Of a stretch of 64,000 bases of DNA, positions 44-48,643 are shown one piece after another. Both the position numbers and the translations under genes were made by a program. The DNA comes from a virus. Taxonomy: Duplodnaviria; Caudoviricetes. The notes beneath the pieces were generated by a model that saw only the letters and a program-made list of their open reading frames with translations, made no database searches and was not told the DNA's origin. Each line of letters opens with the position of its first letter. Positions within the stretch are counted from its first letter, which is position 1. Location of the stretch: the IMG/VR virus record IMGVR_UViG_3300009873_000001. The stretch is one strand, 5' to 3'.

Positions 44-745
44 ATGCGCTCGCTGGGCGGGCTCGGTGCTAGCTCCCCATGGCTTGCCTTGGAGGCCCAA
101 GCCGACGTGCTCGAAAAGCAGGCTGCGGCGCTAGGGCCTTCGTCTCCAGCCGCCCCCTCGCTTTTGAGCCAAGCGCGCACTCTTCGTCAGCAGGCTCATA
201 TTCTGAGGGATCAAGCCGGATATAGCAAATCGAAAGAGCCTGGCTACGCTTCGGCTGGCCAGTTGAGGCCCGCTGAGCGCGAGGCGGCTCAGGAGCCGGT
301 CCCCACTCGGTCGATCGCGTCAGCGTCGACGTCCTCGGCCAAGGTTGCTGAGGACGTGTATAAGAACGCTTTGGCCAGAGGCGCGGCTCCAGAGACCGCC
401 ACGTTCAATGCGGCCTACCAAGGCGCGCTGGCTGAAGGGGCGAGTCATGAGGAGGCTGTAGCTGTCGGCAAGCGTGCGGCAGACGCGTACCGTGCGGGAG
501 CGACCGACGACAGTGCGCTCAGCTTTGGCCCGCAGAAGACGGTGATTCAGCCCTATCAATGGCAGTCCACCGCGCGAGACAGAAAGAGCCTTTTGCCGAC
601 CGAGTCGGCGGTGACGGCAGTGACGCGCACGCCGCTTCAAATGCCGGCGCTGAGCACCGGATCAAAGATCACTGCCGGCGTGGCGCTGGCGATCGGCCTT
701 GGCGGACTGATTCTCTTGGGCGCGATCTTCAGCATGAGGGACTGA
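44..745 (+). CDS. C-terminally anchored membrane protein with GLG motif; probably truncated by the left edge
   Basis: Frame is open from position 2 (FYAFQRGLARRRTRM); LGGLG motif; C-terminal TM ITAGVALAIGLGGLILLGAIF. Confidence 0.7.
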   Translation: MRSLGGLGASSPWLALEAQADVLEKQAAALGPSSPAAPSLLSQARTLRQQAHILRDQAGYSKSKEPGYASAGQLRPAEREAAQEPVPTRSIASASTSSAKVAEDVYKNALARGAAPETATFNAAYQGALAEGASHEEAVAVGKRAADAYRAGATDDSALSFGPQKTVIQPYQWQSTARDRKSLLPTESAVTAVTRTPLQMPALSTGSKITAGVALAIGLGGLILLGAIFSMRD

Positions 746-748
746 GCC

Positions 749-1129
749 ATGGGCGCGTTGACCATGCAAGAGCTGAACGGCCTGGGCCAAGCTGAGGTCA
801 TTGCCGCGCTCGTAGGCCCGCTCGTGCAGGGCGGCGCCGACATTTACCGCACGGTCGAGGAGAGCAAGGCCGCCAAGAAAGAGCTCAAGGCCCGCCAGCA
901 GGAGGCGTTGATCGCGCAGACCACCGAGCGCGAGCGGTTGGCCGCGCTCGAGCGGCAAAGCGCCTTGGCTACCGCAGCGGCGATCAGGCAGTCACAGGCT
1001 TCTCAGGCGTTCTGGGCGCAATACATGCCGTACATCTTCGGTGGAGTGGGGCTTCTGGCGTTGTCTTTCGTGGCTGTGTCGGCCGTGAAGGCGCGCAAAA
1101 AGAAGGCGACGGCGACCAGTGGCAGTTGA
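749..1129 (+). CDS. Small virion membrane protein (coiled coil plus C-terminal TM)
   Basis: N-terminus MGALTMQELNGLG; helical core; TM YIFGGVGLLALSFVAVSAV then basic tail. Confidence 0.75.
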   Translation: MGALTMQELNGLGQAEVIAALVGPLVQGGADIYRTVEESKAAKKELKARQQEALIAQTTERERLAALERQSALATAAAIRQSQASQAFWAQYMPYIFGGVGLLALSFVAVSAVKARKKKATATSGS

Positions 1130-1475
1130 TCCGGGGTGGCTGGAGCGAGTGCGGCAGGCGAACCGCGAACGGTTCGGCATGGCCGGCATGGGCGACTATG
1201 CCGGCATGAATGGCTATTCCGGAATGGGCCAATCTGGTAGCGAGCTCGTAGCCGCTCTGTCTCGCTCCAAGCAGGCCAGGGTGGCAGAGGAGATCGCCAG
1301 AAGGCCGCCTCCTCCAGGTCCGCCTCCCGGGTCGCCGGAGGCCGTTCTGCAGGCACTGCCGCCCATTCCTCCACCACAGCCCATGCAGATTCCCAAGAGC
1401 GTGATCTATCTCGGCGGTGCTCTGGCTGTGGGTCTCGTATTCGTGATCGGCCTCTCGCTCTTGAGGAGAGATTGA
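1119..1475 (+). CDS. Small Pro-rich membrane protein
   Basis: MAGMG and YSGMG motifs, poly-Pro linker, C-terminal TM. Confidence 0.7.
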   Translation: MAVDPGWLERVRQANRERFGMAGMGDYAGMNGYSGMGQSGSELVAALSRSKQARVAEEIARRPPPPGPPPGSPEAVLQALPPIPPPQPMQIPKSVIYLGGALAVGLVFVIGLSLLRRD

Positions 1476-1477
1476 GC

Positions 1478-1768
1478 ATGAAGCCTTATATCAGGCGTTG
1501 GAAGACAGGAGGGCTCGGTCAATTCGACGAGGCCTCACTGGCTGAAAAGCAAGCTCAGCTCATGCGCTTGCGTGAAGAGCGGGCGCAGCTCGAGGCCGAG
1601 ATCCAGAGCGTAAAAACAGGCGTTCCAATCAAGCCACGCGGGGCCGCTGCCGCCCCGATTCCCTCGACAGAAGAAGTCGTCTCTGCCGCACAGGGCATTC
1701 CCGGTTGGGTATGGCTCGCCGCCGGAGCTGGGCTCCTTCTCGTCCTGCGCGGAAGGAAGGCGTCATGA
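1478..1768 (+). CDS. Small coiled-coil membrane protein
   Basis: TGGLG, heptad stretch, C-terminal TM IPGWVWLAAGAGLLLVL. Confidence 0.7.
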   Translation: MKPYIRRWKTGGLGQFDEASLAEKQAQLMRLREERAQLEAEIQSVKTGVPIKPRGAAAAPIPSTEEVVSAAQGIPGWVWLAAGAGLLLVLRGRKAS

Positions 1769-2292
1769 GCTATATCACCATGGGTGACTTCGCTGGCGTG
1801 GCTCAGGACGAGTACACCGCTTGCCGAACCAAGAATCCGGCTGACATGCAGGGCCCTGCTGCGCTCACGTACGCGGATCCGTGCTGGCAGTCGCTCGTGG
1901 CGCTCAGGCGCGCAGAGGGGCGCGATCCGTTTGGGCGAGACTTGTGGGGCCCTGGCGGGGCTCCTCCGCCGAGCACTATCAACCCGACGCTCTCGGCGAG
2001 GCAGCGCGAACTGGGAGCCGAGCAAGTCAAGCCACAGGCTGTCGTGCTCATGGCGCCTGGCGTGGACGCATGGGGCTACCCGACCCAGTACACTCAAGAC
2101 CGGTTGGCCGCCACGTACGGGCCAACGTCATACGAGACCATTCCCAAGATTCGAGAGCGTCGCGAGGCGTCGCCCGCGCTGTCGATCAGAGAACCGGCCA
2201 AGTCGCCCGACAACAAGCTCACCTACATGGCCGTGGGCGGCCTGGCGGTGCTGCTGATCGGGGGCTTGTTCCTCAAGGCTGGCAAACAATGA
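1765..2292 (+). CDS. Membrane protein with CR...DPC module
   Basis: ATG 1765 overlaps upstream stop (ATGA); EYTACR...YADPCW; C-terminal TM. Confidence 0.7.
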   Translation: MSYITMGDFAGVAQDEYTACRTKNPADMQGPAALTYADPCWQSLVALRRAEGRDPFGRDLWGPGGAPPPSTINPTLSARQRELGAEQVKPQAVVLMAPGVDAWGYPTQYTQDRLAATYGPTSYETIPKIRERREASPALSIREPAKSPDNKLTYMAVGGLAVLLIGGLFLKAGKQ

Positions 2293-2699
2293 GCGGCAGT
2301 CTGTTTGGCGCAGAAATCCTGCGCCTGAATCGCGGCATGGGTTCTCTGGGTATTGGCCCAGCGGAAGACGAATACATTGCGTGCAGGCGAAGGAGCCCGG
2401 TTTCCTCCCTGCCGCGCGGAGCAGAACTCACGCCGAACGATCCGTGCTTCAACCAGCTCATGGCGAGCAGGATCGAAGAAGACGAGCGGCGGAAGCAACT
2501 GCCAGGAGATCCTTACGGCACGCTGAAGCCCATGATCGGGCCGCCGGCTTGGGTGTGGGAAGAGCGGGAAGAGCGCGCTCGCGCAAGCAGCCAGAACACG
2601 CTCATGTGGCTAGCCATCGGAGCAGTCGCAGTCGTTGTGCTGGGAGGGGTGTTTCTGCGAGGCGCCAGCAAGCCGGCTTCTGCGGGTCCAGTTGCTTAG
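2289..2699 (+). CDS. Membrane protein with CR...DPC module, paralog of 2734-3342
   Basis: ATG 2289 overlaps upstream stop; GPAEDEYIACRRR..LTPNDPCFNQLMASR; C-terminal TM. Confidence 0.75.
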   Translation: MSGSLFGAEILRLNRGMGSLGIGPAEDEYIACRRRSPVSSLPRGAELTPNDPCFNQLMASRIEEDERRKQLPGDPYGTLKPMIGPPAWVWEEREERARASSQNTLMWLAIGAVAVVVLGGVFLRGASKPASAGPVA

Positions 2700-2733
2700 G
2701 TGCGGATTTTCTTCAAAGGGTTAGGCTAGCACT

Positions 2734-3342
2734 ATGGCCTATCTAACGATGAGACGGCGCCTGCGTACCGGGCTGAGCGGTCTTGGGCTTGGCCCGGCTG
2801 AGGACGAGTATGAAGACTGCAGGCGACGGTATCCGGTCAGCGGGCTGCCGCGTGGTGACGCGCTAACGCCTAACGACCCATGCTTCAACCAGCTCATGGC
2901 CAGCAGAACTGAAGAGGCGGCGCGGCAGGAGGCGCTGCGTAAGGCGCGCTCCATGCCGCCGCCACCCGTCATGAGGCCCGCGCCTGCGCCTGCAGTATCC
3001 GGCAAGTCGCAGTACGAGATCTACGCAGAAGAGGCTGCGCAGGCCTCAAGAACTCAGGAGTCAGTTTACGATCGCGTCGCCCGCCTACGGGAAGAGCAGC
3101 GACTGAACGCGATCCGCAGCGACATGAACATTGAGCGGCCTGACAAGATCATGCCGATTCAAGTTCCGGGATCCATGAGCGACAAGCAGCAGTCCGAGTG
3201 GCTCATGTCGCTGGCTCTGCAGACCAAGCAAGAGCGCGACGCCGCCAGCGCAGCTCGAGGGCTCAAGACGGCAGCCGGGGTGGGCGCTGTGGCGCTGGTC
3301 GGGCTTGGCATGTTGTACCTGATCTTCAGGAACAAGAAGTAG
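2734..3342 (+). CDS. Membrane protein with CR...DPC module
   Basis: LSGLGLG, then GPAEDEYEDCRRR..LTPNDPCFNQLMASR; C-terminal TM. Confidence 0.75.
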   Translation: MAYLTMRRRLRTGLSGLGLGPAEDEYEDCRRRYPVSGLPRGDALTPNDPCFNQLMASRTEEAARQEALRKARSMPPPPVMRPAPAPAVSGKSQYEIYAEEAAQASRTQESVYDRVARLREEQRLNAIRSDMNIERPDKIMPIQVPGSMSDKQQSEWLMSLALQTKQERDAASAARGLKTAAGVGAVALVGLGMLYLIFRNKK

Positions 3343-3348
3343 GAGCGC

Positions 3349-4188
3349 ATGTCCTACATTCCGCTCGGAGCGCTTGCAGACTTCGTCACGCTCGGACCGC
3401 AGTACTACACGACTGATCGGCCGAACGCGGTGCAGGTCATTCAGCGCGGCCCCCACGGAATGAGGTTCGCGGCGGACCCGGTCCGTACGCGCGAAGGCAA
3501 GATCCGCGGCTCCGGATTCCGCTTCTGGAACGAGCAGCAGGTCATGCGGCCGGACGAGAAGTGGTATCCACGCGAAAAGGTCGTGGGGCTCATGGGGCTG
3601 GGGCAGGAACCTCCAGACATTGAGCGTCTAGCAAGGTGCCCTAGCTCGGCACCGGTACCTCCGTCTTTGGTCGAGCCGTCCGATCCGCGCTCTCCAGCTG
3701 CCAGCCTGCGGCGGCAGCTGGTTGAGTCTATGCAGGCCGCTTGCCATGGACGGCAGGACGCGGCCCAGGCAGCGCTCCGCGGGGCTCAGTATTTCATGGT
3801 TCAGTTGCCAGTTTCTGAGCGCGGCGTTTGGCAACAAGAGGCCATGAAAGCTCAGTCGTACATCAAGTCGCTGGCTTCTGTGGCTCCAGAGCTGAAGGCT
3901 CGGCAAGAAGAAAAAGAAATCGACTACGCGCGAGCCATGCAGGAATACAACGTCAAGTATGCCGGCTCTCGCATGGAGCAAGAGCGTCGGTATATCGAAG
4001 AAGCCAAAGAAGAAGCCAGAAAGAAGGCCGAGACCGGCTGCTATTCCTGGGACGTCGGCTGCCAAGTAGGCGAATTCGCAAAGAAACACTGGTGGAAGTT
4101 CGCGCTTGGCGCTGGTGCTCTTCTGTTCTTCTACGGCGCCGGCAAGGGCGTCGGTTCGGGTGTCATGAGACGCCTAGGTGGAGACTGA
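3349..4188 (+). CDS. Coiled-coil membrane protein
   Basis: AGGAG RBS; LMGLG; helical core; C-terminal TM WWKFALGAGALLFFYG. Confidence 0.75.
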   Translation: MSYIPLGALADFVTLGPQYYTTDRPNAVQVIQRGPHGMRFAADPVRTREGKIRGSGFRFWNEQQVMRPDEKWYPREKVVGLMGLGQEPPDIERLARCPSSAPVPPSLVEPSDPRSPAASLRRQLVESMQAACHGRQDAAQAALRGAQYFMVQLPVSERGVWQQEAMKAQSYIKSLASVAPELKARQEEKEIDYARAMQEYNVKYAGSRMEQERRYIEEAKEEARKKAETGCYSWDVGCQVGEFAKKHWWKFALGAGALLFFYGAGKGVGSGVMRRLGGD

Positions 4189-4191
4189 CGC

Positions 4192-5052
4192 ATGCCCGGC
4201 CCGATCATTTGGAACTGGACACCGCAGGGCCCAGGTTGGGATCGGCGCCCAGCCTTCATGCCTAGCGAGCAAGCGCAGTGGAGCCCAAATCCCGCCATTC
4301 CTCATGCCGGAGCGGCCGGCGTGACTGAAGTTGGCGGAGGAATGCTCAACAAGGGAGTAGGTCAGATGTACGGCATGAACGGCATGGGAGACATGTTCGT
4401 CTACCCGCAGGGCGCGGGGCCAGACGACTTCTACCGGCAGCAGATTGCGACCGGCGCCATGCCGGCGCCTGGGTCGGAGGAGTTCCAGGCGACAGGACCA
4501 AAGGAAGGGTCCATGGCCTGGGAGGCCGGCCCGGCCCCGTGGGAGCAGGGCCCCGCTGCTCCGCAGCAGCCGTTCCTGCCGCCTGACCAGGCGCCGGAAG
4601 CAATCGCGGCCATGGAGGCCTCGCGGCGTCGCGCTGCCGAGGTGAAGGCAGTCGAGGCCGCCAAGGCGGCCAAGGTCGCAGCTGACAACGCGATTCGCGC
4701 GGCCAACGCTGGCGCGCCCACCGTCGCCACGACCAACGCCGCCACGGCTCAGGCCGCTGCGAACGTGGCCGCGCGCATGGCCGTGTCGCCTGCTGGACAG
4801 CAGGCTGCTGCCATGGCCGCTGGCGAAGCGACCAAGGCTGTCGCGGCGGCCAACGTCGCCGTCGCGCGCGCGAACGGGAACGGCAACGGCCGAGCCAACG
4901 GAAACGGCAACGGCATGAGCGACTGGATGGAGCTCTCGGGCCTGGGCCAGAGCGCCGACGGGTTCGTGCAGAAGTACAAGTGGCCGCTCTTGCTCGGGGC
5001 CGGGCTGTTCGCGGCCTGGTACACGAAGGGCAAGCTCTGGGGCAAGGAGTAG
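4192..5052 (+). CDS. Ala-rich membrane protein with NG repeats and DWMELSGLG motif
   Basis: MNGMG, Ala-rich helix, NGNGNG x2, SDWMELSGLGQ, C-terminal TM. Confidence 0.75.
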   Translation: MPGPIIWNWTPQGPGWDRRPAFMPSEQAQWSPNPAIPHAGAAGVTEVGGGMLNKGVGQMYGMNGMGDMFVYPQGAGPDDFYRQQIATGAMPAPGSEEFQATGPKEGSMAWEAGPAPWEQGPAAPQQPFLPPDQAPEAIAAMEASRRRAAEVKAVEAAKAAKVAADNAIRAANAGAPTVATTNAATAQAAANVAARMAVSPAGQQAAAMAAGEATKAVAAANVAVARANGNGNGRANGNGNGMSDWMELSGLGQSADGFVQKYKWPLLLGAGLFAAWYTKGKLWGKE

Positions 5053-5056
5053 GCAC

Positions 5057-5359
5057 ATGGCCGAGACGGTCTGGGAGCCGAGCCCTGAAGAAGCAGTCGC
5101 TCGAGCTGTGGAGACACAGCGCGCTCGCGGACTCCTTCCTCGGCAGCATTCTCCGCGCGGCCAGGCATACGGCTACTACCGTCGTCCCATGACAGGGCCG
5201 GCCCTGTCGAGAGAGACGGGAGTCTACACGGATCAAGTCGCCGGCCTGGGCGGCGACGGCTCGGCCTTCGAGGGATCGAGCAAGGCGTTGATCCAGTGCG
5301 TGCTGGTCTTCGCGGCTGGATTCGGGATCGGGTACTTCTTCGCCAAGTCCAAGGCGTGA
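5057..5359 (+). CDS. Small membrane protein
   Basis: AGGAG RBS; VAGLG; C-terminal TM. Confidence 0.7.
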   Translation: MAETVWEPSPEEAVARAVETQRARGLLPRQHSPRGQAYGYYRRPMTGPALSRETGVYTDQVAGLGGDGSAFEGSSKALIQCVLVFAAGFGIGYFFAKSKA

Positions 5360-5368
5360 TCGAGAGTC

Positions 5369-5686
5369 ATGAACTATCAGCCCTGGGTCTCCGTCGAGCC
5401 TTCCGGGCTCATGCCCATGCGAAACGCGCCGACCGTTACTCCCCGGGAGGCGCGGCTTCGCTATTTGGGCGTGAGGGACGAGGCGCCTGAGCCCAGGTCT
5501 ACTCTGACTTCGGCCAGAGTGATCATTGCTCTCCTTGCTGCGGCGATAGCTGGCTATCACGGCTACAAGCGGAACAGCAGCTCAAAGCTGTGGGGCGCGC
5601 TGTGGGCTGTTGGTGGAGCCATGTGTCCGGCCGTGACGCTGCCGTTCGTCTTTTCGCAAGGCTTCGCCAAGTCGGCCAAGGAGTGA
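5369..5686 (+). CDS. Small two-TM membrane protein
   Basis: Two hydrophobic segments flanking YHGYKRN. Confidence 0.7.
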   Translation: MNYQPWVSVEPSGLMPMRNAPTVTPREARLRYLGVRDEAPEPRSTLTSARVIIALLAAAIAGYHGYKRNSSSKLWGALWAVGGAMCPAVTLPFVFSQGFAKSAKE

Positions 5687-5689
5687 TTC

Positions 5690-6718
5690 GTGTCGACTCT
5701 CACCATGGACGAGTTGAACGACTTCGCTGGCCTTGGCCAGGCGGCGAGGGCCAGGCGCGAGGATCGGTCCCGTCGTTACTACAAAACAGGTCCCAGGGTA
5801 ATTCCTCCGCCAGTTCTGGATCCTAGGGTAATTCCTGGGAAGACGGCCCCTAGAACTACGTTCGATCCGTACGCTTACCGCGCTCCACCGCCTCCGCCTC
5901 TGCCACCACCTCCGCCAGCGACTGGAGGTCAGGGCGTTGACTTCACGAATCCTGTCTGGGTAGAGCCGACCAGCCCTTTCCGGAAGGGGGCCGTTGTGTT
6001 CGCGCAACCGTCCCCCAAGGTGGCCCCCAGGGCGCCGGCCCCGCCGCCAGCGCCGCCGCCAGCGACTAGCGGTAAAGGCGTCGACTTCACGAACCCTGTC
6101 TGGGTAGAACCGACCAGCCCCTTCCGGCAGGGGAGCGTCATGTTCGCGCAGCCGGCGCCTAGGCAGCCAGCGATTGCCACTAGGGCATCTGGTCTATCTG
6201 GGGCGCCGCGCCCAAGGCTCGTGACTGAGTACGCAGAGGCCTACATTCGCTGCCGAGAGGCGAATTCTGAGTCGCGGCTACGCGCTAAAGGAATCTGGCC
6301 ATTCACGCCAGAGGATCCTTGTTGGGACGTGTGGCGGATCCACGACCCAGATCGAGCGGCGGTAGCGCTCCAAAAGTACAAGGCCGAGAAGGCATACCAA
6401 GCCAAGATCAAGGAGACCGACGAAAGGGCGCGCCTCGCCAAGATTCGCGCAGGGTTTCCAGGAAAGTCCATGACAGTCGCCCCGCCGCTTACGGTGTCGC
6501 CAAGGCGACCGGCTGAGCAAGTTCCGATTCCGTGGCCCAACAGGGACGGGCTCGAATACAGGATGACAACCGAGAGTCCGTACAGGCCGCGGTCTGGGCT
6601 AGGGCCAGTCAAATCGCCGTTCTTGCGTTCGGGGCGGCTGTACGGTGTGGAGGGGGAGGCGGGCAGCCCGGCGTGGGTGCTGGTGGCTTTGGGATTCGGG
6701 TTCTGGTTGTTGAGCTAG
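5690..6718 (+). CDS. Pro-rich membrane protein with internal duplication and DPC module
   Basis: MSTLTMDELNDFAGLG leader; two copies of GVDFTNPVWVEPTSPFR; YIRCR..EDPCW; C-terminal hydrophobic tail. Confidence 0.7.
   Translation: MSTLTMDELNDFAGLGQAARARREDRSRRYYKTGPRVIPPPVLDPRVIPGKTAPRTTFDPYAYRAPPPPPLPPPPPATGGQGVDFTNPVWVEPTSPFRKGAVVFAQPSPKVAPRAPAPPPAPPPATSGKGVDFTNPVWVEPTSPFRQGSVMFAQPAPRQPAIATRASGLSGAPRPRLVTEYAEAYIRCREANSESRLRAKGIWPFTPEDPCWDVWRIHDPDRAAVALQKYKAEKAYQAKIKETDERARLAKIRAGFPGKSMTVAPPLTVSPRRPAEQVPIPWPNRDGLEYRMTTESPYRPRSGLGPVKSPFLRSGRLYGVEGEAGSPAWVLVALGFGFWLLS
5912..6133 (+). repeat. Intragenic direct repeat, about 78 bp x2, 144 bp apart
   Basis: 5912-5989 and 6056-6133 encode PPAT.G.GVDFTNPVWVEPTSPFR.G. 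Confidence 0.9.
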
Positions 6719-6726
6719 GAGCGATC

Positions 6727-8217
6727 ATGACGCTTCGCATGGACGAGCTGTTCGGATTCGCTCAGGCCGCGTCTGGCGATTTCCGCTACGGGCTTGGAAA
6801 GCCGAGCAAGAAGAGCTGCTGTGACAACTGCAAGTCCGGGAAGCCGTGCTGTGGATCTGGCGACCACGGCCACGACCACCGCATGCTCGGAGACGTGGAC
6901 GAGCAAGAGCTGGAAGCTCCCCAGTACGGCTATCAGTACGTGCAGACCACCGTGCCTGGGAAGACCGTCTTCGGCAAGCCGGTTGGTCTCGTGCCGAAGG
7001 AGCGCAAGATCGAAATCACGCGCCTGATCGACGAGCTCGAGTGGCTCGCTGGAACGCCGGGGATTCACCCCGGGGTACTGGCTCAGAAGATCTGGGAGGC
7101 GCGGCGCCGGCTCATGGGCAGCGCGGACTGGGAGTTCGCGTCCTATGCCACGCCTGGGCAGAGCTGGGACTCGAAGGAAGCATTGCTCGATCGGCTTGAG
7201 GCCGTGGAGCGCGTGCTTGGCGTGGAGGGAATCAGCCCGAAGCTCATGAGTGCATTCGCTGGAATGGGTGGGCTGGGCACGTATCCGTACCAGGACATTC
7301 CACGCTGGACGGAGCAGTACTGGCCGATCAGAAAGCTGGCGTCCTGCATTCGTTCGCGGATCTGCCACAAGGACGAGTACTGCTGCCCGCCCCAAGCACG
7401 GTATCCAGAGCCTGACTGGTGCTATCACCCACCTCAGAGGGTGCTGTGGCCGGCTTTGCCGCCGCCTCCTCCACCGCAGCTGCCGCCTCCTTTCCTGCCG
7501 CCCAGGACGTTCGAGCCGGTGGGGATCTTCGTGCAGCCGCCGTTCGGGACCAGGCTGCCACCGCCGCCGAGGCCACCGAGGCTGCCTCCGCCCCTGCAGC
7601 CGCCGCGCCTGCCGCCTCCGCCACTCCCTCCCCGCCTTCCGCCGCCGGAGGAAACCAGGCTGCCACCACCTCCGCAGCCGCCGCGGCTGCCGCCACCTCC
7701 GCCGCCGGAAGAAACCAGGCTCCCTCCGCCCGGAGGCCCGCCGCCTGGCGTCGAGCTCAGACCGCTGAGGAGGACCGTTGTCGGTCTGCCGGTCACGGCT
7801 GGTGTCGAGATGGCGCAACTCTCCCGCGGGATCCCGACTCGTCAAATGCTGCAACGAGTCACGCCAGGAACGGCGCCTATGGTGGTGCCCATGCCCTCGG
7901 GCGCCGGGGCCAATTTCGTTCAGGCCGGCCCCGTGATCGAGGTGCGCGGCGCCCCCACGCGCATGGTCGAGGCTGGGGCCACGCCATGGCCCGCGCGCCT
8001 GGTTCAGGGCGGACGGCAGGCGCCGACAGTCATGCTTCCGCCTGCTGGGCAACAGACAGGCAACGCTCTGCAAATTGCGGCGAGAACCGTGCCTCAGGCG
8101 AGAATTGCTGTACGTCCTGGTCAGGCAAGCCTGGCCGGACTGAGTGGTTCTGTGGCTGATCTTCTGGCGCTAGTCAACGAGACGCGACGCGAGATTCGCC
8201 GGCAGAGGGGAGCCTGA
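6727..8217 (+). CDS. Cys-cluster and Pro-rich protein with RLPPP repeats
   Basis: AGGAG RBS before ATG 6727; MTLRMDELFG leader; SCCDNC..PCC; FAGMGGLG; RLPPPP tandem repeats. Confidence 0.7.
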   Translation: MTLRMDELFGFAQAASGDFRYGLGKPSKKSCCDNCKSGKPCCGSGDHGHDHRMLGDVDEQELEAPQYGYQYVQTTVPGKTVFGKPVGLVPKERKIEITRLIDELEWLAGTPGIHPGVLAQKIWEARRRLMGSADWEFASYATPGQSWDSKEALLDRLEAVERVLGVEGISPKLMSAFAGMGGLGTYPYQDIPRWTEQYWPIRKLASCIRSRICHKDEYCCPPQARYPEPDWCYHPPQRVLWPALPPPPPPQLPPPFLPPRTFEPVGIFVQPPFGTRLPPPPRPPRLPPPLQPPRLPPPPLPPRLPPPEETRLPPPPQPPRLPPPPPPEETRLPPPGGPPPGVELRPLRRTVVGLPVTAGVEMAQLSRGIPTRQMLQRVTPGTAPMVVPMPSGAGANFVQAGPVIEVRGAPTRMVEAGATPWPARLVQGGRQAPTVMLPPAGQQTGNALQIAARTVPQARIAVRPGQASLAGLSGSVADLLALVNETRREIRRQRGA

Positions 8218-8219
8218 GC

Positions 8220-10163
8220 GTGTACGAAATGGCGCGCCCGAACCCGTGGTTTTCTCCACCGGCGTTGCAGTACGTCGCGCGCTTCTCGCCGGCCTTCTTC
8301 AATCCGCCTGAAGTGGCAGAGAACCCAGGACCGTGCTTCTTCAATCCGCCGCGAAGGAAGCTGTGGATCAGAGGAGTAGAGCCGAGCTGGCACGCGCCGG
8401 CCGGGCTGTTCTCGGAAGGCAGCGCGGAGGAGATCGCTGACGAGATCCTCGAAGCGCACGACTACGACCTGGCGTCGTCCATGCAGTCGCTCCAGTTCTA
8501 TATCAACCGAGCTGGAAGGAATCTCGGGCGGCTGCGCGTCCTGAACCGGGCCAAGCAGATCATTCGGCAGGAAGGAATCTCCCGCGCTGAACAGCGCGCG
8601 CCGCGACCCATGCGCGCCGCCGCCAACCCGGCGTTCTTTCCCTACTACCCGAACCCGCCGTCGCATGAGGACGAAGAGAGCGTCTGCCCAGATTGCGGCG
8701 AAGAGTTCTGTATTTGCGAGGACGTGTCTCTCGAATGCCCGCAATGCGAAGGGCCGGGCATGCTTCTGGGGCGTCTTGGAGGCCGCACGCACTACCGCTG
8801 CAGGAACTGTGGGTGGGACTTCTCGCAGACCGGAGAGAATCCACTCCACTGCAGTGGCTACGAGTTCAGCTGCGACGAAGGCTCAGACGGCGTGCTCTCG
8901 TATCGCGCGCCTGACGTCGAGCGCCATGCGCGTGAGCCGAGCTTCCTACCTCGGCCCGTCCGTGAGTACATGGACAACCCGGTCCGGCGCAACGCGACCT
9001 GCTTCGCGTGCATGAGCACGAGCTGTCCGTGCGGCTGCCAAGGCGACGAGTCGCTGTGCGTCTGCCCGAACCCGCTCTCCTGGGACGAGGCGCAGTCCAC
9101 GCTCGAGCACGTCGACAAGTACCGCCGTCGCGCACGCGAAGAAGATCCGGACTGGGGTCTCTACTACACCGGGGCCGCGCGCGGTGCGCTCCGGCCACTG
9201 AAGTACGGACACCCAGCGCTCTACGAAATGGAGAAGCGCGCCCAGCAGAAGTTCGAACGCGAGATCTTTCGCGCGCCCGCCGGGAGCGCCGCGGCCAATC
9301 CGCTCGACGACACCGAGGTCGGTCAGATCATGAGCGGCGTGCGCTCGCACCACGCGCGGTCGCGCTCGGAGGAAGATCCTGTTCAGAGCGCCTACTACGG
9401 CGGTCGGGCCTACGAAGGGCGGCGGATCGCAGACCGCTACGGCTCTGTGCCGTGGAGCGCCTCTGGCAGGGCTGCAGCGAACCCGCGCACCTGTGGCTCG
9501 TGCGAGCGCGGCGACCATGACCGCTGTGAAGGGTGCCTGTGCTGGTGCAGCGCGACCGGGTTCTATCCTGCGCTGAGGAATCCGTGGTGGAGCGAACCGA
9601 GCGAGGACACGGTCTGGTTCTGTCGTGAGTGCCGCGCCGGCCAGCATCTTTCCTGCCTCGGCCCTGGCTGCAACTGCGGGTGCGTGTCGCAGAATCCGTT
9701 CGCGGTCGTGCCCGTCGAAGCAATCATGAATCCGCGTCGGCCGAAATACTTCACGATGAAGCCGCAGATCGAAGAAGGCGCAGCGTTCCCGTCGCGCCCG
9801 TTCTCCCATGGCCAGCTCCGCCGCACCATGGAGACAGACCGCATGCACCAGAGCCGCATGAAGGGGATCATTCGCTGGGTCGCCAAGAAAGAATTCGGAG
9901 CGAATCTCTCCGACGCCTCGATCGAGGCCATGCTCGGGCGCTCGCGCGCGCAGCTAGCCGAAGAGGGCCGCCACCGCCTCTCGAAGATCAAGGCGCGCGC
10001 CGATCAGATCTTCTACGCGCAGTCGCGGAAGTTCTACGGCCTGCCAGGAACAGAGATCTCCGAAGAGACCGTGCCAGAGCCGGCGCGCGGGCGCCGCGTG
10101 CGGATCGTGAAGGTCAAGCGGAAGAAGAAGGCCGGCGCGAAGAAGCGGAAGAAGGTCGGGTAG
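8220..10163 (+). CDS. Modular protein of Asn-Pro-delimited units: DUF3175-like unit, Cys/His Zn-binding units, basic tail
   Basis: More than 12 NP motifs; FYINRAGRNL resembles the DUF3175 signature; several CxxC clusters; Lys/Arg-rich C-terminus. Confidence 0.7.
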   Translation: MYEMARPNPWFSPPALQYVARFSPAFFNPPEVAENPGPCFFNPPRRKLWIRGVEPSWHAPAGLFSEGSAEEIADEILEAHDYDLASSMQSLQFYINRAGRNLGRLRVLNRAKQIIRQEGISRAEQRAPRPMRAAANPAFFPYYPNPPSHEDEESVCPDCGEEFCICEDVSLECPQCEGPGMLLGRLGGRTHYRCRNCGWDFSQTGENPLHCSGYEFSCDEGSDGVLSYRAPDVERHAREPSFLPRPVREYMDNPVRRNATCFACMSTSCPCGCQGDESLCVCPNPLSWDEAQSTLEHVDKYRRRAREEDPDWGLYYTGAARGALRPLKYGHPALYEMEKRAQQKFEREIFRAPAGSAAANPLDDTEVGQIMSGVRSHHARSRSEEDPVQSAYYGGRAYEGRRIADRYGSVPWSASGRAAANPRTCGSCERGDHDRCEGCLCWCSATGFYPALRNPWWSEPSEDTVWFCRECRAGQHLSCLGPGCNCGCVSQNPFAVVPVEAIMNPRRPKYFTMKPQIEEGAAFPSRPFSHGQLRRTMETDRMHQSRMKGIIRWVAKKEFGANLSDASIEAMLGRSRAQLAEEGRHRLSKIKARADQIFYAQSRKFYGLPGTEISEETVPEPARGRRVRIVKVKRKKKAGAKKRKKVG

Positions 10164-10165
10164 TC

Positions 10166-10384
10166 ATGGCTAGCCGCGAGGAGTGTGCTGCTGGCTTTCG
10201 CGCGGACGGCTCGCGGCTCGCGTACGGAGATTGCGATTTCGTGGAGAGCGCGCGGGCGGCTCCATATCCGTCTCTCTATGTTCGGGAGTCCGGCACAGAC
10301 CTCATGAGCGGCTTCGGCAAGGGGTTGGTCTACGGTGCAATTGGAACCGTGGTGCTGTTCATTCTGATCCAAAGGCTCAGGTAA
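10166..10384 (+). CDS. Small membrane protein
   Basis: ATG 10166 just after upstream stop; MSGFG then C-terminal TM. Confidence 0.65.
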   Translation: MASREECAAGFRADGSRLAYGDCDFVESARAAPYPSLYVRESGTDLMSGFGKGLVYGAIGTVVLFILIQRLR

Positions 10385-10386
10385 CA

Positions 10387-11325
10387 GTGGACGTTCGTCA
10401 AAACCCACTGCTGGCGATCGTGGGCAACCCAGCTCGCGACATTCACCCGCTTGCTTTCGAAGCGCGCGACCGCTATCGCGCCGATATGAGCGCGGGGCAC
10501 GAAGAAGCCGCCGAATACTGGCGCGGGCAAGCCGGGGCGTTCTTCACCGGCAACAATCCGCTCGGCCCGATCTACTACTATCCAGTCAAACACCGCGGTC
10601 TTTTGATCGGAGCTATGCAGGCCGACGACGGCATCGACGCCATGCGCTCTGCTGAAGAAGAATTCGGCCCAGGTGTGAATCTCGGAGTGGCGTACAGGTC
10701 GCTGCAGGCGTTGATCGCGCGCGAAGGTCACCCGCCAGTTGGTCCGATTCCAGCTAAGAGGATAGGCTACTACTCCGAAGGCGGACCACTCTACGGCAAG
10801 AACCCCAGAAGGAATCCAGCGCTCGACGAAGAAGAGCTCGACATAGCCGAAGCGCAGCTCGCGCTCGCAGAGCGGCATAGAAGTTCTGTGGCGGGTTCCA
10901 AGTCGCGCGGTAAGGTCAAATCAAAGGGCAGGAAAGTCCGGGGAAACCCACAAGAGAAGAGGAAGCAGCGGCCGAAGGTCACGCGCTACAGCTTGGAGGA
11001 AGCGCGGAAGAAGTTCAGAGGCCTCGACGCTGCGATCAAGAAGTTCAAGAGATTCCATGGCTCGAGCAGCAATCCAGATCATGTCGACGTCTACCACCTG
11101 CCGGACGGCAGGAACGAAGAGCGCGTCGAGAACGTGCATGCAGCTCTGCACCGGACTCTTGAGACTCCTTACGTCGTACCCTGGAAGAGCAACAAGAAGG
11201 GCACCCTTTGGCTGCACGAGCATCCAGAAGGAGACGGGGCGCCTCTCGAGGTCCTCGACCCTGAGACCGGCACCACGCGGAAAATCGCGGGTGACTTCGT
11301 GGTCGACGACTGGTGGGAAAGCTAG
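10387..11325 (+). CDS. NP-motif basic modular protein
   Basis: GTG 10387; RQNP, GNP, NNP, KNPRRNP, RGNP, SNP; basic central part; AIKKFKRFHG domain. Confidence 0.7.
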   Translation: MDVRQNPLLAIVGNPARDIHPLAFEARDRYRADMSAGHEEAAEYWRGQAGAFFTGNNPLGPIYYYPVKHRGLLIGAMQADDGIDAMRSAEEEFGPGVNLGVAYRSLQALIAREGHPPVGPIPAKRIGYYSEGGPLYGKNPRRNPALDEEELDIAEAQLALAERHRSSVAGSKSRGKVKSKGRKVRGNPQEKRKQRPKVTRYSLEEARKKFRGLDAAIKKFKRFHGSSSNPDHVDVYHLPDGRNEERVENVHAALHRTLETPYVVPWKSNKKGTLWLHEHPEGDGAPLEVLDPETGTTRKIAGDFVVDDWWES

Positions 11326-11466
11326 AAGCAATGAGCTCACGAATTTGTGGACAGGTTCGAGAGTTCGGCTACGGTTGTACATGGAGTCACTTCCGTGTTG
11401 AGTCACACGCTTTTGATTCCTGTGCTGAATCCGCCGCGCGGAGCGAGCGGGAGGAGTAAGAGCAAA

Positions 11467-13341
11467 ATGGCGACGAAGTCGAAGTCGTCTCGCAAGCGCG
11501 GAAGGAAGGTCGCCAAGACCAGCTCGCGCACCCGCAAGGGTGGACGGAAGCTGACTTGGGTCGAGGCCGCGCGCTCGTCAGGCGCTGTCTATCCAGCGAG
11601 CTGGCCGGACGCCAAGAAGCGCGGGAAGGTCATGTCGCCCAATGACGCCTTGATCGCCAAGGTGCCGGTGGTCGGTTTCTTGAACCGCGCCATGATCAAG
11701 GGGTGGCACGAGAAGACCTCTGGTCTCGACACCTCGAACAAGCGCTACAAGAAGTCGAAGGCCTACAAGGGCGCGGTGGCTTGGCTCAAGCAGGGCTCGG
11801 CCCTGCTCAAGAAGCAGCGCCGCGAGCGCGGGTCGATCTGGTTGCGCGAACCGGCCTTCAAGTGGTCCGGTCGCGGAAAAGCAAAGAAGCGTGTGCGTGT
11901 TCCGGACTTCAGTGTGAAGGACGGCAAGCTGCGTTTCCGTGCGGGGCGCGGTCCTTACACTTCGCTCCGTCTCTACCGTGGTTTCGGGCCCACAAAGCGC
12001 CAGGTCGGCCGGTTGGTCGGCGGCGGTTTCGGGGGTCCACTGTCTGCGCCAGGAGGCACTGTGAAGCTGAACAGGTCCCGCAGGCGGAAGGGCCGTCGTG
12101 CCGGTCGCCGTCGTCGGGGTTCTTCCGTCATGCACGTCAAGTTCAACAAGCGCCGCCGCCGCGCGCGCCGCAACAAGGGACGGAAGAGCGGTGCCGGTTT
12201 CACCTCCGCCGTCTACAACAACAAGGGTCGGAAGAAGCGTCGTCGTGGCAAGCGTGTGGTGCTCGAGTCCGGCGCCAAGAAGCGCCGCCGCTCGATCAAG
12301 GTCTCTGGCAAGGGCCTCGTGGTCCGCACCAACCGTCGCCGTCGTCGCCGCCGCAGTCACGCGGCAGCTTCCAACCCGCGGCGTCGTCGCCGCCGGAGCC
12401 ACGTCCGCATGAACCGTCGCCGTCGTCGTCGCCGTTCTGTGGCCTCGAACCCCCGTCGTCGCCGCCGTCGCGCGGCTGCGAACAGCGGGCGTCGCCGCCG
12501 TCGCCGGCACTCGGTGAGGGCGAACCGCGGGCGCCGTGGCCGTCGCCGTCGGCACTACGCGATCGTCAAGCACAACCGCGGGCGTCGGCACCGTGTGCGG
12601 AGGAACCCGTTCCAGGCCCAGCTCGCGCAGCTGCGTGACGCTTCGTTCTGGATCACTGGCGGCCACATTCTCGTGGGCGCCGGTCTGACCGGTCTCGCGA
12701 GCCGGGCGATCATGAACTTCAAGTTCGCTCGCCAGGTCGCGTCCATGCGTGGCGCGGGTGGCGCGGTCGCTCGCGCTGGCTTGAACGTGGGCAGCACGCT
12801 GCTGGTCTCGGCGGCGGTCTCCTACCTCAAGCGCTTCGTGGGCGGTGGCCGCTACCTCGAGAACGTCGAGCGGAACGTGCTGGTCGGTGGCGTGGTCTAC
12901 ACGCTGGCCAACCTGGCGTACGACCTCTGGCCGGGTGGGGCTGAGAAGCTCATTCCTGGCGTGAGCGCGCCGCGCGGCAACCTGCTGCCACGCGCCTCGT
13001 CGGCCGCGGCCAGCGGGGAAATGGGCTGGCTCCCGGGCCGCAAGGCCTACCCTGGCGAGTACCCCGGTTACGGCGGGCTCGGCATGGTCATGAGCCCTGA
13101 GGACCTGGTCGCTGGCGAGTCCATGGCTCGGCAGGTGAACGAGTTCTCGGGTCTCGGCAGCTCGGGCGGCGCTCCGGTGCCGCTCGAGGATCTGCGCGGC
13201 TACCCCGGCCAGTACGGCGGTGGCATGAACGACTGGATGGAGCTCTCGGGCATGGGCGGAGGCATGGGCGACTGGGTCGAGATCGACCCGAACGCCAACC
13301 TCGTGAAGGCCGGGTTCGACCCGGGCACCGAGACGTTCTAG
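11467..13341 (+). CDS. Arg-rich (protamine-like) membrane-associated core protein
   Basis: GAGGAG RBS before ATG 11467; Asn-initiated poly-Arg blocks; three hydrophobic helices after RRNP; C-terminal GLG/GMG motifs. Confidence 0.75.
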   Translation: MATKSKSSRKRGRKVAKTSSRTRKGGRKLTWVEAARSSGAVYPASWPDAKKRGKVMSPNDALIAKVPVVGFLNRAMIKGWHEKTSGLDTSNKRYKKSKAYKGAVAWLKQGSALLKKQRRERGSIWLREPAFKWSGRGKAKKRVRVPDFSVKDGKLRFRAGRGPYTSLRLYRGFGPTKRQVGRLVGGGFGGPLSAPGGTVKLNRSRRRKGRRAGRRRRGSSVMHVKFNKRRRRARRNKGRKSGAGFTSAVYNNKGRKKRRRGKRVVLESGAKKRRRSIKVSGKGLVVRTNRRRRRRRSHAAASNPRRRRRRSHVRMNRRRRRRRSVASNPRRRRRRAAANSGRRRRRRHSVRANRGRRGRRRRHYAIVKHNRGRRHRVRRNPFQAQLAQLRDASFWITGGHILVGAGLTGLASRAIMNFKFARQVASMRGAGGAVARAGLNVGSTLLVSAAVSYLKRFVGGGRYLENVERNVLVGGVVYTLANLAYDLWPGGAEKLIPGVSAPRGNLLPRASSAAASGEMGWLPGRKAYPGEYPGYGGLGMVMSPEDLVAGESMARQVNEFSGLGSSGGAPVPLEDLRGYPGQYGGGMNDWMELSGMGGGMGDWVEIDPNANLVKAGFDPGTETF

Positions 13342-13353
13342 TTCAGTGCGGCG

Positions 13354-14389: not shown

Positions 14390-15772
14390 GTGCAGCTTGC
14401 GCCGCACCCCATGAAGATCGTGTCGGGCTGGGGCTCGACCGCGACATGTGCGTATTGCCATGGATTCGCCAAGATCAAGCCATTGGTCCGCGGATCAGAC
14501 GGCTACATGCACATGAACCCGGACTTCGAAATGATCCGGCGCTTCCACATGCGCGCGGAGCCGTATGGGTTCTCGCTGCCCGCCGGTGCCACACAGGAGT
14601 TCGTGTTCACGGTCCCTGCCGAGGAAGAAAGCCTCGGCGACATGCTGATCAACGAGCTGCTGGCTGTGTTCACACCCGACACGGTGCGGAATATCAGCGT
14701 GCAGTTCCTCAGCCTTCAGACCGACCGCGTGTTCCAGAACGCCCCGGTGTTCAACACGCTCGTGTTCGGGAACAGCCACCTGAACTGTTGCCTGCCCTGC
14801 TGCACGCTCGTCCAGGCCACCAACTCGCTCAAGATGTCGGTCACGAACAACGAGGCGTTCCCGGTCGAGATTCGCGTGGTCGCGCGCGGGATCCGGTTCC
14901 TGCCCAAGAGCGACGAGCTCCGCACGCGAATGCTGATGTACTGGAACACGATCCCGAGCTATCCGTACTTCCAGACGCTGGACCAGCAGGAAGTGATCGT
15001 GCCCGGCGGCGGTGCTGCGTTCTCGGTGACGGCGCTCATGACGATCACCGGCACGGGTGACTTCGAAGTGAAGTGGCCGCGGGCCGAAATCATTGACGTG
15101 GGTCCGCCTGCCGATCCGAACCTGGTGCTCGTGAGTGTGGTCGAGCAGGTCGGCCGCGAGTGGCAGACGGATCCGATTCCGCTCACGAGCTTCGTGGCCA
15201 CGCCCACGCTGGTCGTGCCTGGCTTCCCTGGCGACCTGTTTCGCGCGGCCTCGGCCTGTCACTGCCCGCCCTACCCGCAGCTCTTCAAGCGCAACAACCG
15301 GATCCGTCACATTTTCACCAACAACAACCCGGTGGGTGTGGACGTGCGAGTGCGGCTGACCTACGCGGGCTGCTTCCATGAGGTCGACGAGTGCAAGCCG
15401 GGCCGATCCATGGACAGGATTCGCAGCCTCGAGCCGACGATCGGGCCGGTGCTTGTCACCCAGCGTGACATGTGCCCGCCTCACCCGGAGGGCTATACGC
15501 CGGAGGAGGAGTACTACAACGACCTTCCGTTCCAACCTGCAATCCCGCCGCCCATGCCGGCCGCACAGCCAATGCCCATGAGGGTGCAGGCGCCTGCGCG
15601 GCAGGGGCTGCGGTTCGTTCAGCAGGCACCGCTGCCGGGATCGCAGCGGATAGCGGCCTACCCGCAGGTTCAGCCGCAGCCGAACCCAGCCGGTCCGCCC
15701 GGACTCGGCGGAATGGTCAAGCGCGGTGAGCTCTACTGGGATCCGTTCGCCAAGGCGTGGAAGAGGGCGTAG
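14390..15772 (+). CDS. Putative double jelly-roll-like capsid protein A
   Basis: GGAGG RBS before GTG 14390; two internally similar beta-rich halves; Pro-rich tail with GLGG; paralog of next gene. Confidence 0.55.
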   Translation: MQLAPHPMKIVSGWGSTATCAYCHGFAKIKPLVRGSDGYMHMNPDFEMIRRFHMRAEPYGFSLPAGATQEFVFTVPAEEESLGDMLINELLAVFTPDTVRNISVQFLSLQTDRVFQNAPVFNTLVFGNSHLNCCLPCCTLVQATNSLKMSVTNNEAFPVEIRVVARGIRFLPKSDELRTRMLMYWNTIPSYPYFQTLDQQEVIVPGGGAAFSVTALMTITGTGDFEVKWPRAEIIDVGPPADPNLVLVSVVEQVGREWQTDPIPLTSFVATPTLVVPGFPGDLFRAASACHCPPYPQLFKRNNRIRHIFTNNNPVGVDVRVRLTYAGCFHEVDECKPGRSMDRIRSLEPTIGPVLVTQRDMCPPHPEGYTPEEEYYNDLPFQPAIPPPMPAAQPMPMRVQAPARQGLRFVQQAPLPGSQRIAAYPQVQPQPNPAGPPGLGGMVKRGELYWDPFAKAWKRA

Positions 15773-48484: not shown

Positions 48485-48643
48485 ACCCGAAGCATAACCA
48501 CTTTTTGCTGTATCCGCAACCTGTTGCGGCAGATAACTTTGTGATCCAATTGGCTTTGTGGTCAGGGCTGGCCCGCCGTGGAGAATAGGTACTGAAGGCC
48601 GGCAGCCGGCGCGCGCCACGGGCGCAGATGAGGGGAGGCCAGC

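Follow-up and report, generated by a model that had tools for sequence, protein, structure and literature searches.

The window analyzed here, a 64-kb stretch of viral DNA (IMG/VR record IMGVR_UViG_3300009873_000001), carries a block of genes for putative virion proteins in which one short peptide motif, hydrophobic-x-Gly-[Leu/Met]-Gly, occurs repeatedly at leader ends, in linkers, ahead of membrane anchors, and between repeats. Glu or Gly often stands just ahead of this short linear signal and a small or polar residue just after it; the window has approximately 33 occurrences (Table 1). It is considered here mainly as a possible site of proteolytic virion maturation.

The window has a GC content of 64% and is densely coding, with the + strand predominant. 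Recognizable domains are present in few of its proteins, including two C5 DNA methyltransferases, a Ser/Thr kinase, and a dual-specificity phosphatase; glycosyltransferases, methyltransferases, an epimerase, and proteins with collagen-like repeats were also recognized. The block at 6.5–17 kb gave no PHROG matches and contained no tailed-phage genes. GGAGG-type sites precede 35 of 66 crude starts, compared to a background of 19%, and the genes overlap at stop and start codons, as those of prokaryotic viruses do. The gene calls are our own and are approximate outside the curated block. Three genes hidden by longest-open reading frame (ORF) calling were added in curation (1478–1768, 2289–2699, and 5690–6718), and starts were corrected to 44, 1765, 6727, and 14411.

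Table 1. Motif-bearing genes of the window, named in the text by their first coordinate, with (-) for the minus strand
Product	Coordinates	Strand	Motif sites and other features
Tail-anchored membrane protein, 233 aa	44..745	+	Starts MRS-LGGLG (53-67); C-terminal transmembrane segment
Small tail-anchored protein	749..1129	+	Leader MGALTMQE-LNGLG (773-787), then conserved putative mature N-terminus
Small tail-anchored protein	1119..1475	+	37-aa conserved leader with MAGMG (1179-1193) and YSGMG (1215-1229)
Tail-anchored protein, 96 aa	1478..1768	+	Variant TGGLG (1505-1519) after 13-aa leader
Tail-anchored protein, paralog of 2289 and 2734	1765..2292	+	Starts MSYITMGD-FAGVA (variant, 1789-1803)
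136-aa paralog of 2734	2289..2699	+	Leader variants NRGMG, SLGIG
Tail-anchored protein	2734..3342	+	Leader MAYLTMRRRLRTG-LSGLG (2773-2787)
279-aa protein	3349..4188	+	Internal site VVG-LMGLG (3589-3603)
286-aa protein	4192..5052	+	MNGMG (4375-4389); DWME-LSGLG (4933-4947), 12 aa ahead of hydrophobic C-terminal tail
100-aa protein	5057..5359	+	VAGLG (5237-5251), 13 aa ahead of C-terminal transmembrane segment
342-aa protein	5690..6718	+	Leader VSTLTMDELND-FAGLG (5723-5737), near-identical to 53594 leader
496-aa Pro-rich protein	6727..8217	+	Starts MTLRMDEL-FGFA (variant site); internal double site FAGMGGLG (7255-7278)
664-aa very basic Arg-rich protein	11347..13341	+	C-terminal region: YGGLG (13069-13083), FSGLG (13144-13158), DWME-LSGMG (13243-13257)
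Double jelly-roll capsid protein 1 (by model)	14411..15772	+	Disordered C-terminal tail with variant PGLGGMV (about 15701-15718), then conserved 18-aa C-terminal hairpin
Double jelly-roll capsid protein 2, 38% identical paralog of protein 1	15757..17124	+	IYGMG (15790-15804) near N-terminus; LEGLG (17074-17088), 11 aa from C-terminus
372-aa protein	51515..52633	+	MSGLG (51701-51715), LSGMG (51992-52006), MSGLG (52022-52036)
305-aa protein	52680..53597	+	Leader MSQLTMQSLFEFQR-LAGLG (52722-52736)
149-aa zinc-ribbon protein	53594..54043	+	Leader VSQLTMDELYR-FAGLG (53627-53641)
127-aa protein	58634..59017	-	LLGLG (58745-58759), 15 aa ahead of C-terminal transmembrane segment
340-aa protein, polyprotein-like layout	62078..63100	+	Five sites (62129, 62276, 62366, 62465, 62675) closing short repeat units
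Ser/Thr protein kinase	46790..48862	-	PF00069, E 2e-42; VWGLG (47894-47908), not part of the system
C5 DNA methyltransferase	59067..60071	-	PF00145, E 1e-40; FAGLG (59973-59987), not part of the system

Enrichment and Position of the Motif

The motif was tested as [LMFIYV]xG[LM]G. A rough gene call gave 32 matches in 19,186 amino acids, compared to 5.2 ± 2.2 in within-protein shuffles (n = 2000, maximum 15) and 6.3 ± 2.5 in shuffles confined to 20-residue blocks. The 16 curated genes of 44–13341 (4,385 amino acids) hold 16 matches against 0.99 ± 1.02 expected (3000 shuffles, maximum 7); 10 of them carry the strict motif and three more a relaxed variant (TGGLG, FAGVA, and NRGMG/SLGIG). For the 23-gene virion block as a whole (44–19194), 18 matches were found against 1.32 ± 1.15, an enrichment of approximately 15-fold. 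A second cluster at 51.5–63 kb, comprising genes 51515, 52680, 53594, 58634(-), and 62078, contains 11 matches against 0.3 expected, in a set that was delimited post hoc, after the matches had been seen. Eight Pfam-recognized enzymes hold 3 matches against 0.9 expected, and two of the three are canonical enzyme motifs: FAGLG in 59067(-), which we take to be the S-adenosylmethionine-binding motif I of C5 methyltransferases, and VWGLG in 46790(-), presumably kinase subdomain IX. The remaining 32 proteins contain 1 match against 2.5 expected. In total, 16 non-enzyme proteins carry the strict motif and four carry variants. The initial annotation, made from the sequence letters, had placed the pattern in about 20 putative virion proteins of the first block and of the region beyond 51.5 kb, rarely in enzymes and often at the end of a leader or between modules, and these counts and their excess over shuffled sequence agree with that description.

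When the same residue classes were arranged in all 60 orders, that of the motif ranked first, and among G-x-G tripeptides those with Met (4.0-fold) or Leu (2.2-fold) in the middle show the strongest over-representation. At the sites, all four Gly codons and four Leu codons occur in the same proportions as in the genome as a whole; this variety of synonymous codons indicates selection on the peptide and not on the DNA, and rules out a DNA-level signal. A transmembrane glycine zipper was also ruled out, as nearly all sites (all but one) lie in polar sequence outside hydrophobic segments. FKGLG at 2712–2726 proved to be an artefact of reading through a stop codon and was dropped from the counts. 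LVGLG in gene 2734 (3295–3309), which lies within the transmembrane segment, is probably incidental, as are a few other listed matches.

Half of the matches lie within 40 residues of a protein end (binomial p = 0.005), and four classes of position can be distinguished. First, sites end short N-terminal leaders of 0 to 60 amino acids (genes 44, 749, 1119, 1478, 2734, 5690, 52680, 53594, and 62078, with variant sites in 1765, 2289, and 6727). Second, they stand 12 to 15 residues ahead of a C-terminal hydrophobic anchor (4192, 5057, and 58634(-)). Third, they separate repeat units or conserved peptides (11347, 51515, and 62078). Fourth, both capsid proteins have them in the C-terminal tail. Of 19 motif proteins, 10 have a hydrophobic anchor, which mostly lies at the C-terminus, and the small proteins encoded in 44–5686 have mostly a single C-terminal transmembrane segment, which suggests a virion membrane.

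When 113 G[LM]G sites of the window and of related genomes were pooled, position -2 was hydrophobic in 65%, -1 was Ser, Gly, or Ala, -3 was often Gly or Glu, and Gly, Ala, Asp, Ser, or Gln stood at +1. The start M-[SA]-x-[LI]-[TS]-[MF] is common to at least nine proteins that are otherwise unrelated (749, 1765, 2734, 3349, 5690, 51515, 52680, 53594, and 62078), for example MSYITM, MAYLTM, MSQLTM, and VSTLTM, with MSYMPF, MALSYNEL, and MSLSMS in relatives. It appears to be a targeting or leader module that these proteins have in common at the N-terminus, ahead of the Gly motif. A longer module, DWMELSG[LM]G, is found in three otherwise unrelated proteins.

Related Viruses and Conservation of the Motif

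Related genomes were recovered from the loci around homologs of the capsid protein called at 14192–15772, of which 37 were found in metagenomes, and around a second marker. Viral contigs were recovered by alignment-based scans; a scan with a single capsid protein sequence gave no match. The relatives include a 102-kb contig (L001/L011), a complete IMG/VR record of 245,276 bp with direct terminal repeats and 100% completeness (G001), a more distant 94-kb record (G002), and several shorter contigs. The 245-kb genome is represented by at least four independent assemblies of 245,035 to 245,297 bp. The gene order of the block is conserved among the relatives. In the complete relative, a transfer-messenger RNA (tmRNA) with the tag ADQKAHLPTATSRA was found at 128149–128557 (L015-L027), and the genome also has five tRNAs. 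No match to the HK97 capsid family, Terminase_6N, or the S78 prohead protease was found in this complete genome, and a literature search found no description of such a large double jelly-roll virus family. Collectively, the window belongs to a member of an uncultured virus family with double jelly-roll capsid genes, genomes of up to 245 kb, Shine-Dalgarno sites, and a tmRNA. The large tailless prokaryotic virus proposed in the initial annotation is thus upheld as to capsid fold and prokaryotic translation signals; for its packaging ATPase (FtsK/HerA-type), the best result was an 11.7-bit PF01580 match in the complete relative, below the cutoff, and none was recognized in the window.

Sites were found at matching positions in orthologs that are 35–60% identical, in four related metagenomic viruses. 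The motif is retained in the leaders of three families (749, 1119, and 1478) and at the internal site of a fourth (6727). The site of gene 749 reads LDGMG and LHGLG in the 102-kb and 245-kb relatives, and the second site of gene 1119 reads LAGLG and MSGLG in orthologs. Gene 1478 has a strong Shine-Dalgarno site ahead of its ATG, and its orthologs begin MIGLG and MIRGLG, each with a Shine-Dalgarno site of its own and no alternative start so supported; these starts therefore stand, and the leader in this family ranges from 0 to 13 amino acids. Several other genes called in relatives also start right at M-x-G-[LM]-G, and one of these starts (MNGMG, L012:7204) was rejected as mis-called, as 58 upstream codons are conserved as protein in three genomes. 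The internal site of gene 3349 is kept in four of four genomes (LMGLG, LMGLG, LMGLS with LSGLG, and FMGLG). Both sites of gene 4192 align with motif copies of the relatives, the first being degenerate (QAGMA) in the 102-kb relative. Orthologs of gene 6727 carry GMSGLG or YGMGGLG internally, and ELMGLG is the N-terminal site in the 102-kb relative. In the 11347 family, the first two sites are conserved in position across five relatives and are kept in three to four of the four distinct relatives aligned, and the peptides between them are also conserved, while the ortholog of gene 62078 in the 245-kb relative has three repeats, each closed by [ML]FGMG. The homologous block as a whole is enriched in the complete relative (16 matches against 1.95 expected) and in the 94-kb relative (11 against 1.4), whose candidate enzyme, described below, is only 49% identical.

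The capsid-protein tail was compared in 31 homologs. With positions numbered for a cut before the last Gly, P4 is hydrophobic in 31/31, P2 is Gly in 30/31, P1 is Leu or Met in 25/31, and P1' is Gly in 22/31; the linker around the site varies in length and sequence. The paralogous capsid protein 15757 carries a C-terminal motif in 8 of 8 homologs, a few residues ahead of a conserved GEWExL end. Thus neither of two outcomes that would have told against the signal, a lack of enrichment over shuffled sequence and a lack of conservation in homologs, was observed.

Capsid Proteins

An AlphaFold2 model of 14192–15772 was built on 31 sequences. The core (residues 90–410) was modeled with a predicted local distance difference test (pLDDT) value of approximately 90, the long motif-bearing tail with values below 50, and the C-terminal hairpin follows the tail. 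Compared to known structures, the core gave VIA Z values of 12.1 with the STIV major capsid protein, 11.3 with PRD1 P3, 10.2 with PBCV-1, and 9.8 with PM2 P2; by this model, it is a double jelly roll. Equally high scores were obtained with DUF2961 and PNGase F, which are cellular double-barrel proteins, and the capsid assignment therefore also requires the gene context (a pair of paralogs within a conserved block). The adjacent paralogous pair at 14411–17124 is kept in all relatives, which suggests a heteromeric capsomer.

The gene next to this pair, 13514–14152 (212 amino acids), is the most conserved of the block, with 85–86% identity where the capsid proteins show only 50–63%. No family or fold assignment was obtained for its product. 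A domain paralogous to it closes gene 34948–35823. In L007 and L010, its counterpart is split in two ORFs approximately 300 nt apart, and in the 245-kb relative a LAGLIDADG/Mom ORF lies between the counterpart and the capsid gene.

Candidate Maturation Enzyme

No protease was found in Pfam, PHROGs, and NCBIfam scans of approximately 60 window proteins, as the initial annotation had also reported. Three conserved window proteins of 248 (17109), 173, and 117 amino acids were rejected, as they are without a conserved Cys/His pattern, and a 14.8-bit NlpC/P60 hint in 26211–27908 was dismissed, as no conserved Cys is aligned there. An adenain-like enzyme was not found: Peptidase_C5 (PF00770) and C48 (PF02902) gave no match at E ≤ 1 in the complete 245,276-bp or the 94-kb relative and none in the Pfam scans of the window, so that by this test the two relatives do not encode a member of the adenain family. 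C39 (PF03412), S78, and ClpP likewise gave no match in either of these two relatives. CPBP/Rce1 (PF02517) had no match in the complete relative, and a CPBP protease is therefore not a conserved partner of the motif.

A different enzyme is encoded where the block begins. A gene of 253–258 codons in the 102-kb and 245-kb relatives directly precedes that for a protein of approximately 640 amino acids and the run of small motif-bearing proteins. Exactly one copy is present in each of the complete and 94-kb relatives, at the block head, and the gene and the capsid gene lie on the same contig in all three long contigs. Scores with the Pfam family PF01841 (Transglut_core; cutoff 23 bits) were 27.0 for L011:1652–2413, 34.6 for the 94-kb relative, and 23.5 for the complete relative; a further copy, L012:353–1129, scored 21.6 bits when scanned alone. 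Forty homologs with 46–72% identity were found, and the enzyme is more conserved than the capsid protein. C161 (in GDCD), H196 (in WSHVY), and D215 are invariant in 27 aligned homologs. By Pfam score, triad, and fold, the enzyme belongs to the transglutaminase-like superfamily.

An AlphaFold2 model of the enzyme has a mean pLDDT of 78 (core approximately 90). Its closest structural neighbors are annotated as proteases: VIA Z values are 13.6 for 3kd4 (putative protease) and 10.2 for 3isr (putative cysteine protease), with 9.1 for LapG (Foldseek E 2e-4). Cross-linking enzymes gave 10.0 (factor XIII), 9.9 (TG3), and 9.5 (TG2), and the pseudomurein isopeptidases PeiW/PeiP 7.8. The likeness to LapG is at the level of the fold only, as no NCBIfam family matched at E ≤ 0.05 to indicate LapG/BTLCP membership and there was no Protein Data Bank sequence match. 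Similar folds occur in phage protein clusters, with an Atlas TM of 0.85 to a PF01841 cluster. About 10 of 27 homologs carry G[LMF]G in a disordered N-terminal leader of their own, which would fit self-processing. A complex prediction for the enzyme core and the capsid C-terminal tail scored 0.04, under the mark, and provides no evidence either way. The gene is absent from the 64-kb window (tblastn and profile search), and the copy of this genome is expected, by synteny, approximately 2–3.5 kb upstream of position 1.

Among viral folds, the best match of the enzyme was BFVD I1ZBG7 (304 amino acids, 25% identity, E 8e-10).

Proposed Processing Model and Alternatives

The motif is probably a proteolytic site, to judge from its enrichment, its confinement to a virion-type gene block and a few other genes, its conservation, and its placement where processing sites usually lie. 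The chances are about even that it marks the proteins of the virion module for maturation processing by one virus-encoded protease, with the transglutaminase-fold enzyme as the best candidate; that the sites are cut by this very enzyme is a serious possibility, a little short of even. The initial annotation had one protease or assembly factor processing or sorting these proteins by an adenain-like code; of this proposal, the properties of the motif are supported and an adenain-type enzyme is not.

A cysteine protease would cut at the motif, most probably between Leu/Met and the last Gly. With a cut before the last Gly, P4 would be the conserved hydrophobic residue and P2 the conserved Gly, as in adenain sites and double-glycine leaders. 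Such cleavage would have several consequences. First, it would strip the shared leaders, which may first target the proteins to the assembling particle, as the leaders of T4 internal proteins do. Second, it would free ectodomains from their tail anchors in the viral membrane. Third, it would yield peptides from the Arg-rich protein 11347 and from the repeat protein 62078. Fourth, it would detach or loosen the C-terminal hairpins of both capsid proteins.

Several points weigh against this model. We infer cleavage, the scissile bond, and the identity of the enzyme alike from sequence, and the presence of the enzyme in the genome of the window rests on synteny with the relatives. The transglutaminase fold also covers cross-linking enzymes, amidases, and cell-wall isopeptidases, so that the enzyme is a candidate protease only, and proteases too divergent for Pfam could sit among the many unannotated genes. 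P1' is Gly in only 22/31 capsid tails and some sites are degenerate in single genomes, which would also fit a looser binding motif. Finally, the rest of the complete relative is only about 2-fold enriched (20 matches against 10.5), and the term "genome-wide" that had been applied to the motif was an overstatement.

Among the alternatives, the best supported is an uncut docking or assembly signal, bound by a capsid protein, a scaffold, or a membrane-insertion factor, that sorts proteins into the particle. The longer targeting-like modules that accompany the motif (M-S-x-L-T-M in at least nine proteins and DWMELSG[LM]G in three) are consistent with sorting, and in orthologs that start right at M-x-G-L-G there is almost nothing to remove. 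However, one docking function would hardly explain sites between repeats, ahead of anchors, and near both capsid C-termini, protease sites more typically have such a Gly-x-Gly core within disordered linkers, and a conserved gene with a protease fold heads the block. We consider this reading unlikely, though it deserves attention.

Ligation is an improbable alternative. In this reading, an amine (on a capsid lysine or a lipid head group, for example) would receive the acyl end produced when the transglutaminase-fold enzyme cuts at the motif, or the enzyme would form cross-links nearby; either way, virion proteins would be covalently stabilized or anchored. The Cys-His-Asp acyl-enzyme mechanism permits such transfer, true cross-linking transglutaminases are among the fold matches given above, and Gln is frequent after the motif. 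Yet neither a conserved acceptor nor a conserved Gln at a set distance is present, the +1 residue being G, A, D, S, or Q, and the nearest structural neighbors are annotated as proteases.

To a similar degree, it is improbable that a host enzyme, for example a C39 double-glycine-leader peptidase, or an undetected viral protease reads the motif while the transglutaminase-fold gene does other work, such as cell-wall digestion at entry. Class II bacteriocin double-glycine leaders have L at -12, S/T at -11, E at -8, L at -7, a hydrophobic residue at -4, and G at -2, and the LTMDELxxFAGLG leaders fit this register if the cut precedes the last Gly; moreover, most genes of these viruses are without annotation and might include another protease. 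Against a host C39 enzyme, P1 is Leu or Met and not Gly, the internal and C-terminal sites are no secretion leaders, and the genomes of the complete and 94-kb relatives hold no C39 domain. A conserved viral enzyme beside its putative substrates is also the more economical explanation.

Chance, composition, or an inherited duplicated leader module without present function is very improbable: Gly is frequent (10.8%) in this 64% GC genome and some leaders are clearly paralogous (5690/53594/52680 and 1765/2289/2734), but the observed counts exceed every one of the 2000–3000 shuffles, local-composition ones included, the motif stands in at least 10 unrelated sequence contexts, and homologous sites are kept at 35–60% protein identity while neighboring residues change.

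Comparison with Known Maturation Systems

Dedicated maturation proteases with a short consensus are known for adenoviruses, large eukaryotic DNA viruses, and tailed phages. The proteolytic model for the motif can be compared with each of these and with several non-viral or non-proteolytic systems.

The adenovirus protease, adenain (MEROPS C5, clan CE), cleaves at consensus sites of the forms (M/L/I)XGX|G (type 1), of which the pVI site IVGL|G is an instance (PMC4246237), and (M/L/I)XGG|X. The [LMFIYV]xG[LM]G motif falls within the type-1 consensus, and IVGL|G is a literal instance of it, in line with the fit to adenain sites first noted in the initial annotation. In both cases, a double jelly-roll capsid is found together with one short motif (P4 hydrophobic, P2 Gly, P1' Gly) at leader ends and near the C-termini of many virion proteins. 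In contrast to adenain, the candidate has a transglutaminase fold with the order Cys-His-Asp, and no C5/C48 homolog is present in the complete relative; P1 is limited to Leu or Met, and the putative substrates, from a virus of a prokaryotic host, include many tail-anchored membrane proteins. The likeness of the candidate to adenain would thus lie in substrate logic only, which we infer to reflect convergence and not homology.

The clan CE proteases of African swine fever virus (ASFV; pS273R) and poxviruses (I7) recognize GG|X and AG|X sites, both in core polyproteins and in membrane proteins. These viruses are also large, their particles have an internal membrane, and their capsid or scaffold protein is a double jelly roll; a Gly-containing site is used on core and membrane-associated proteins. 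They differ from the present viruses in enzyme clan, motif, and host domain, and no C48 homolog was found here (C57 and C63 were not searched for).

In tailed phages, prohead proteases such as T4 gp21, which cuts after L/I-x-E, and phiKZ gp175, which cuts after S/A/G-x-E, process many head proteins, and shared leaders target these proteins and are then removed. One protease with a short motif would likewise serve many proteins here, and the M-S-x-L-T-M leaders resemble such targeting leaders. However, the prohead enzymes are serine proteases of HK97-fold capsids, and the relatives here are without HK97, Terminase_6N, or S78 matches.

LapG is a site-specific protease that cuts a small-residue motif and releases a protein from its anchor; it acts in the periplasm, depends on calcium, and recognizes a di-alanine (TAAG) site in one substrate. 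The candidate shares with LapG the fold and the Cys-His-Asp triad (Z 9.1). The two differ in the TAAG site, single substrate, periplasmic location, and calcium dependence of LapG, and no sequence match (NCBIfam or Protein Data Bank) placed the candidate in the LapG family.

C39 is a papain-like cysteine peptidase that forms a domain of ABC transporters. The LTMDELxxFAGL|G leaders of 5690 and 53594 match the spacing of its double-glycine leaders at -12, -11, -8, -7, -4, and -2, whereas the P1 residue here is Leu/Met, many sites are internal or C-terminal, and neither a C39 domain nor a transporter was found in the viral genomes.

PRD1, PM2, and STIV share the fold of the capsid protein (Z 9.8–12.1) and probably an internal membrane with many small membrane proteins. 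They and their relatives have genomes of approximately 10–20 kb, and we know of none that matures by proteolysis. The viruses described here differ in having genomes of up to 245 kb, a tmRNA and tRNAs, and two paralogous capsid genes.

We tentatively propose, at somewhat less than even confidence, that an undescribed lineage of bacterial viruses, with genomes of 94 to 245 kb, double jelly-roll capsids, and internal membranes, matures its particles by means of a transglutaminase-fold protease that has converged on the adenovirus-type code of P4 hydrophobic, P2 Gly, and P1' Gly. If true, prokaryotic jelly-roll viruses would have their first proteolytic maturation system, and the enzyme would form a new class among viral maturation proteases. 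The fold of the candidate is not known to have been linked to virion maturation before. If confirmed, it would represent convergent evolution of an adenain-like substrate code, would make mature virion proteins predictable from sequence alone, and would bear on whether proteolytic maturation in this virus realm predates its eukaryotic branch. The motif provides a testable map of approximately 20 putative substrates with 30 or more sites.

Other Genes of the Window

Three large, very basic proteins are encoded at 8220–13341. They are punctuated by Asn-Pro dipeptides and Cys-rich clusters, and 11347 contains long Arg runs; these are possible DNA-condensing core proteins.

Gene 26211–27908 encodes a conserved protein of 565 amino acids, 41% identical to the product of a gene of the 245-kb relative. 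Its motifs FASGS, VFVDSGAF, VAPD, and VPVQ are reminiscent of tRNA-guanine transglycosylases and DpdA-type DNA-modification enzymes.

Collagen-like Gly-X-Y repeat proteins with 27–28% Gly are encoded at 19207–20343, 28922–30544, and 42922–43887. These three proteins, possibly fibers, resemble large proteins of the 245-kb relative in their C-termini or repeats.

Several sets of paralogs were also found. One set, of approximately 480 amino acids, comprises 20773, 23114, and 56793(-); another, with domains of approximately 140 amino acids, comprises 20344, 58221(-), 56214(-), and 22225; a further set comprises 43925, 45822, and 50517. The sets repeated on both strands span 20773–24574 and 56214–58637(-).

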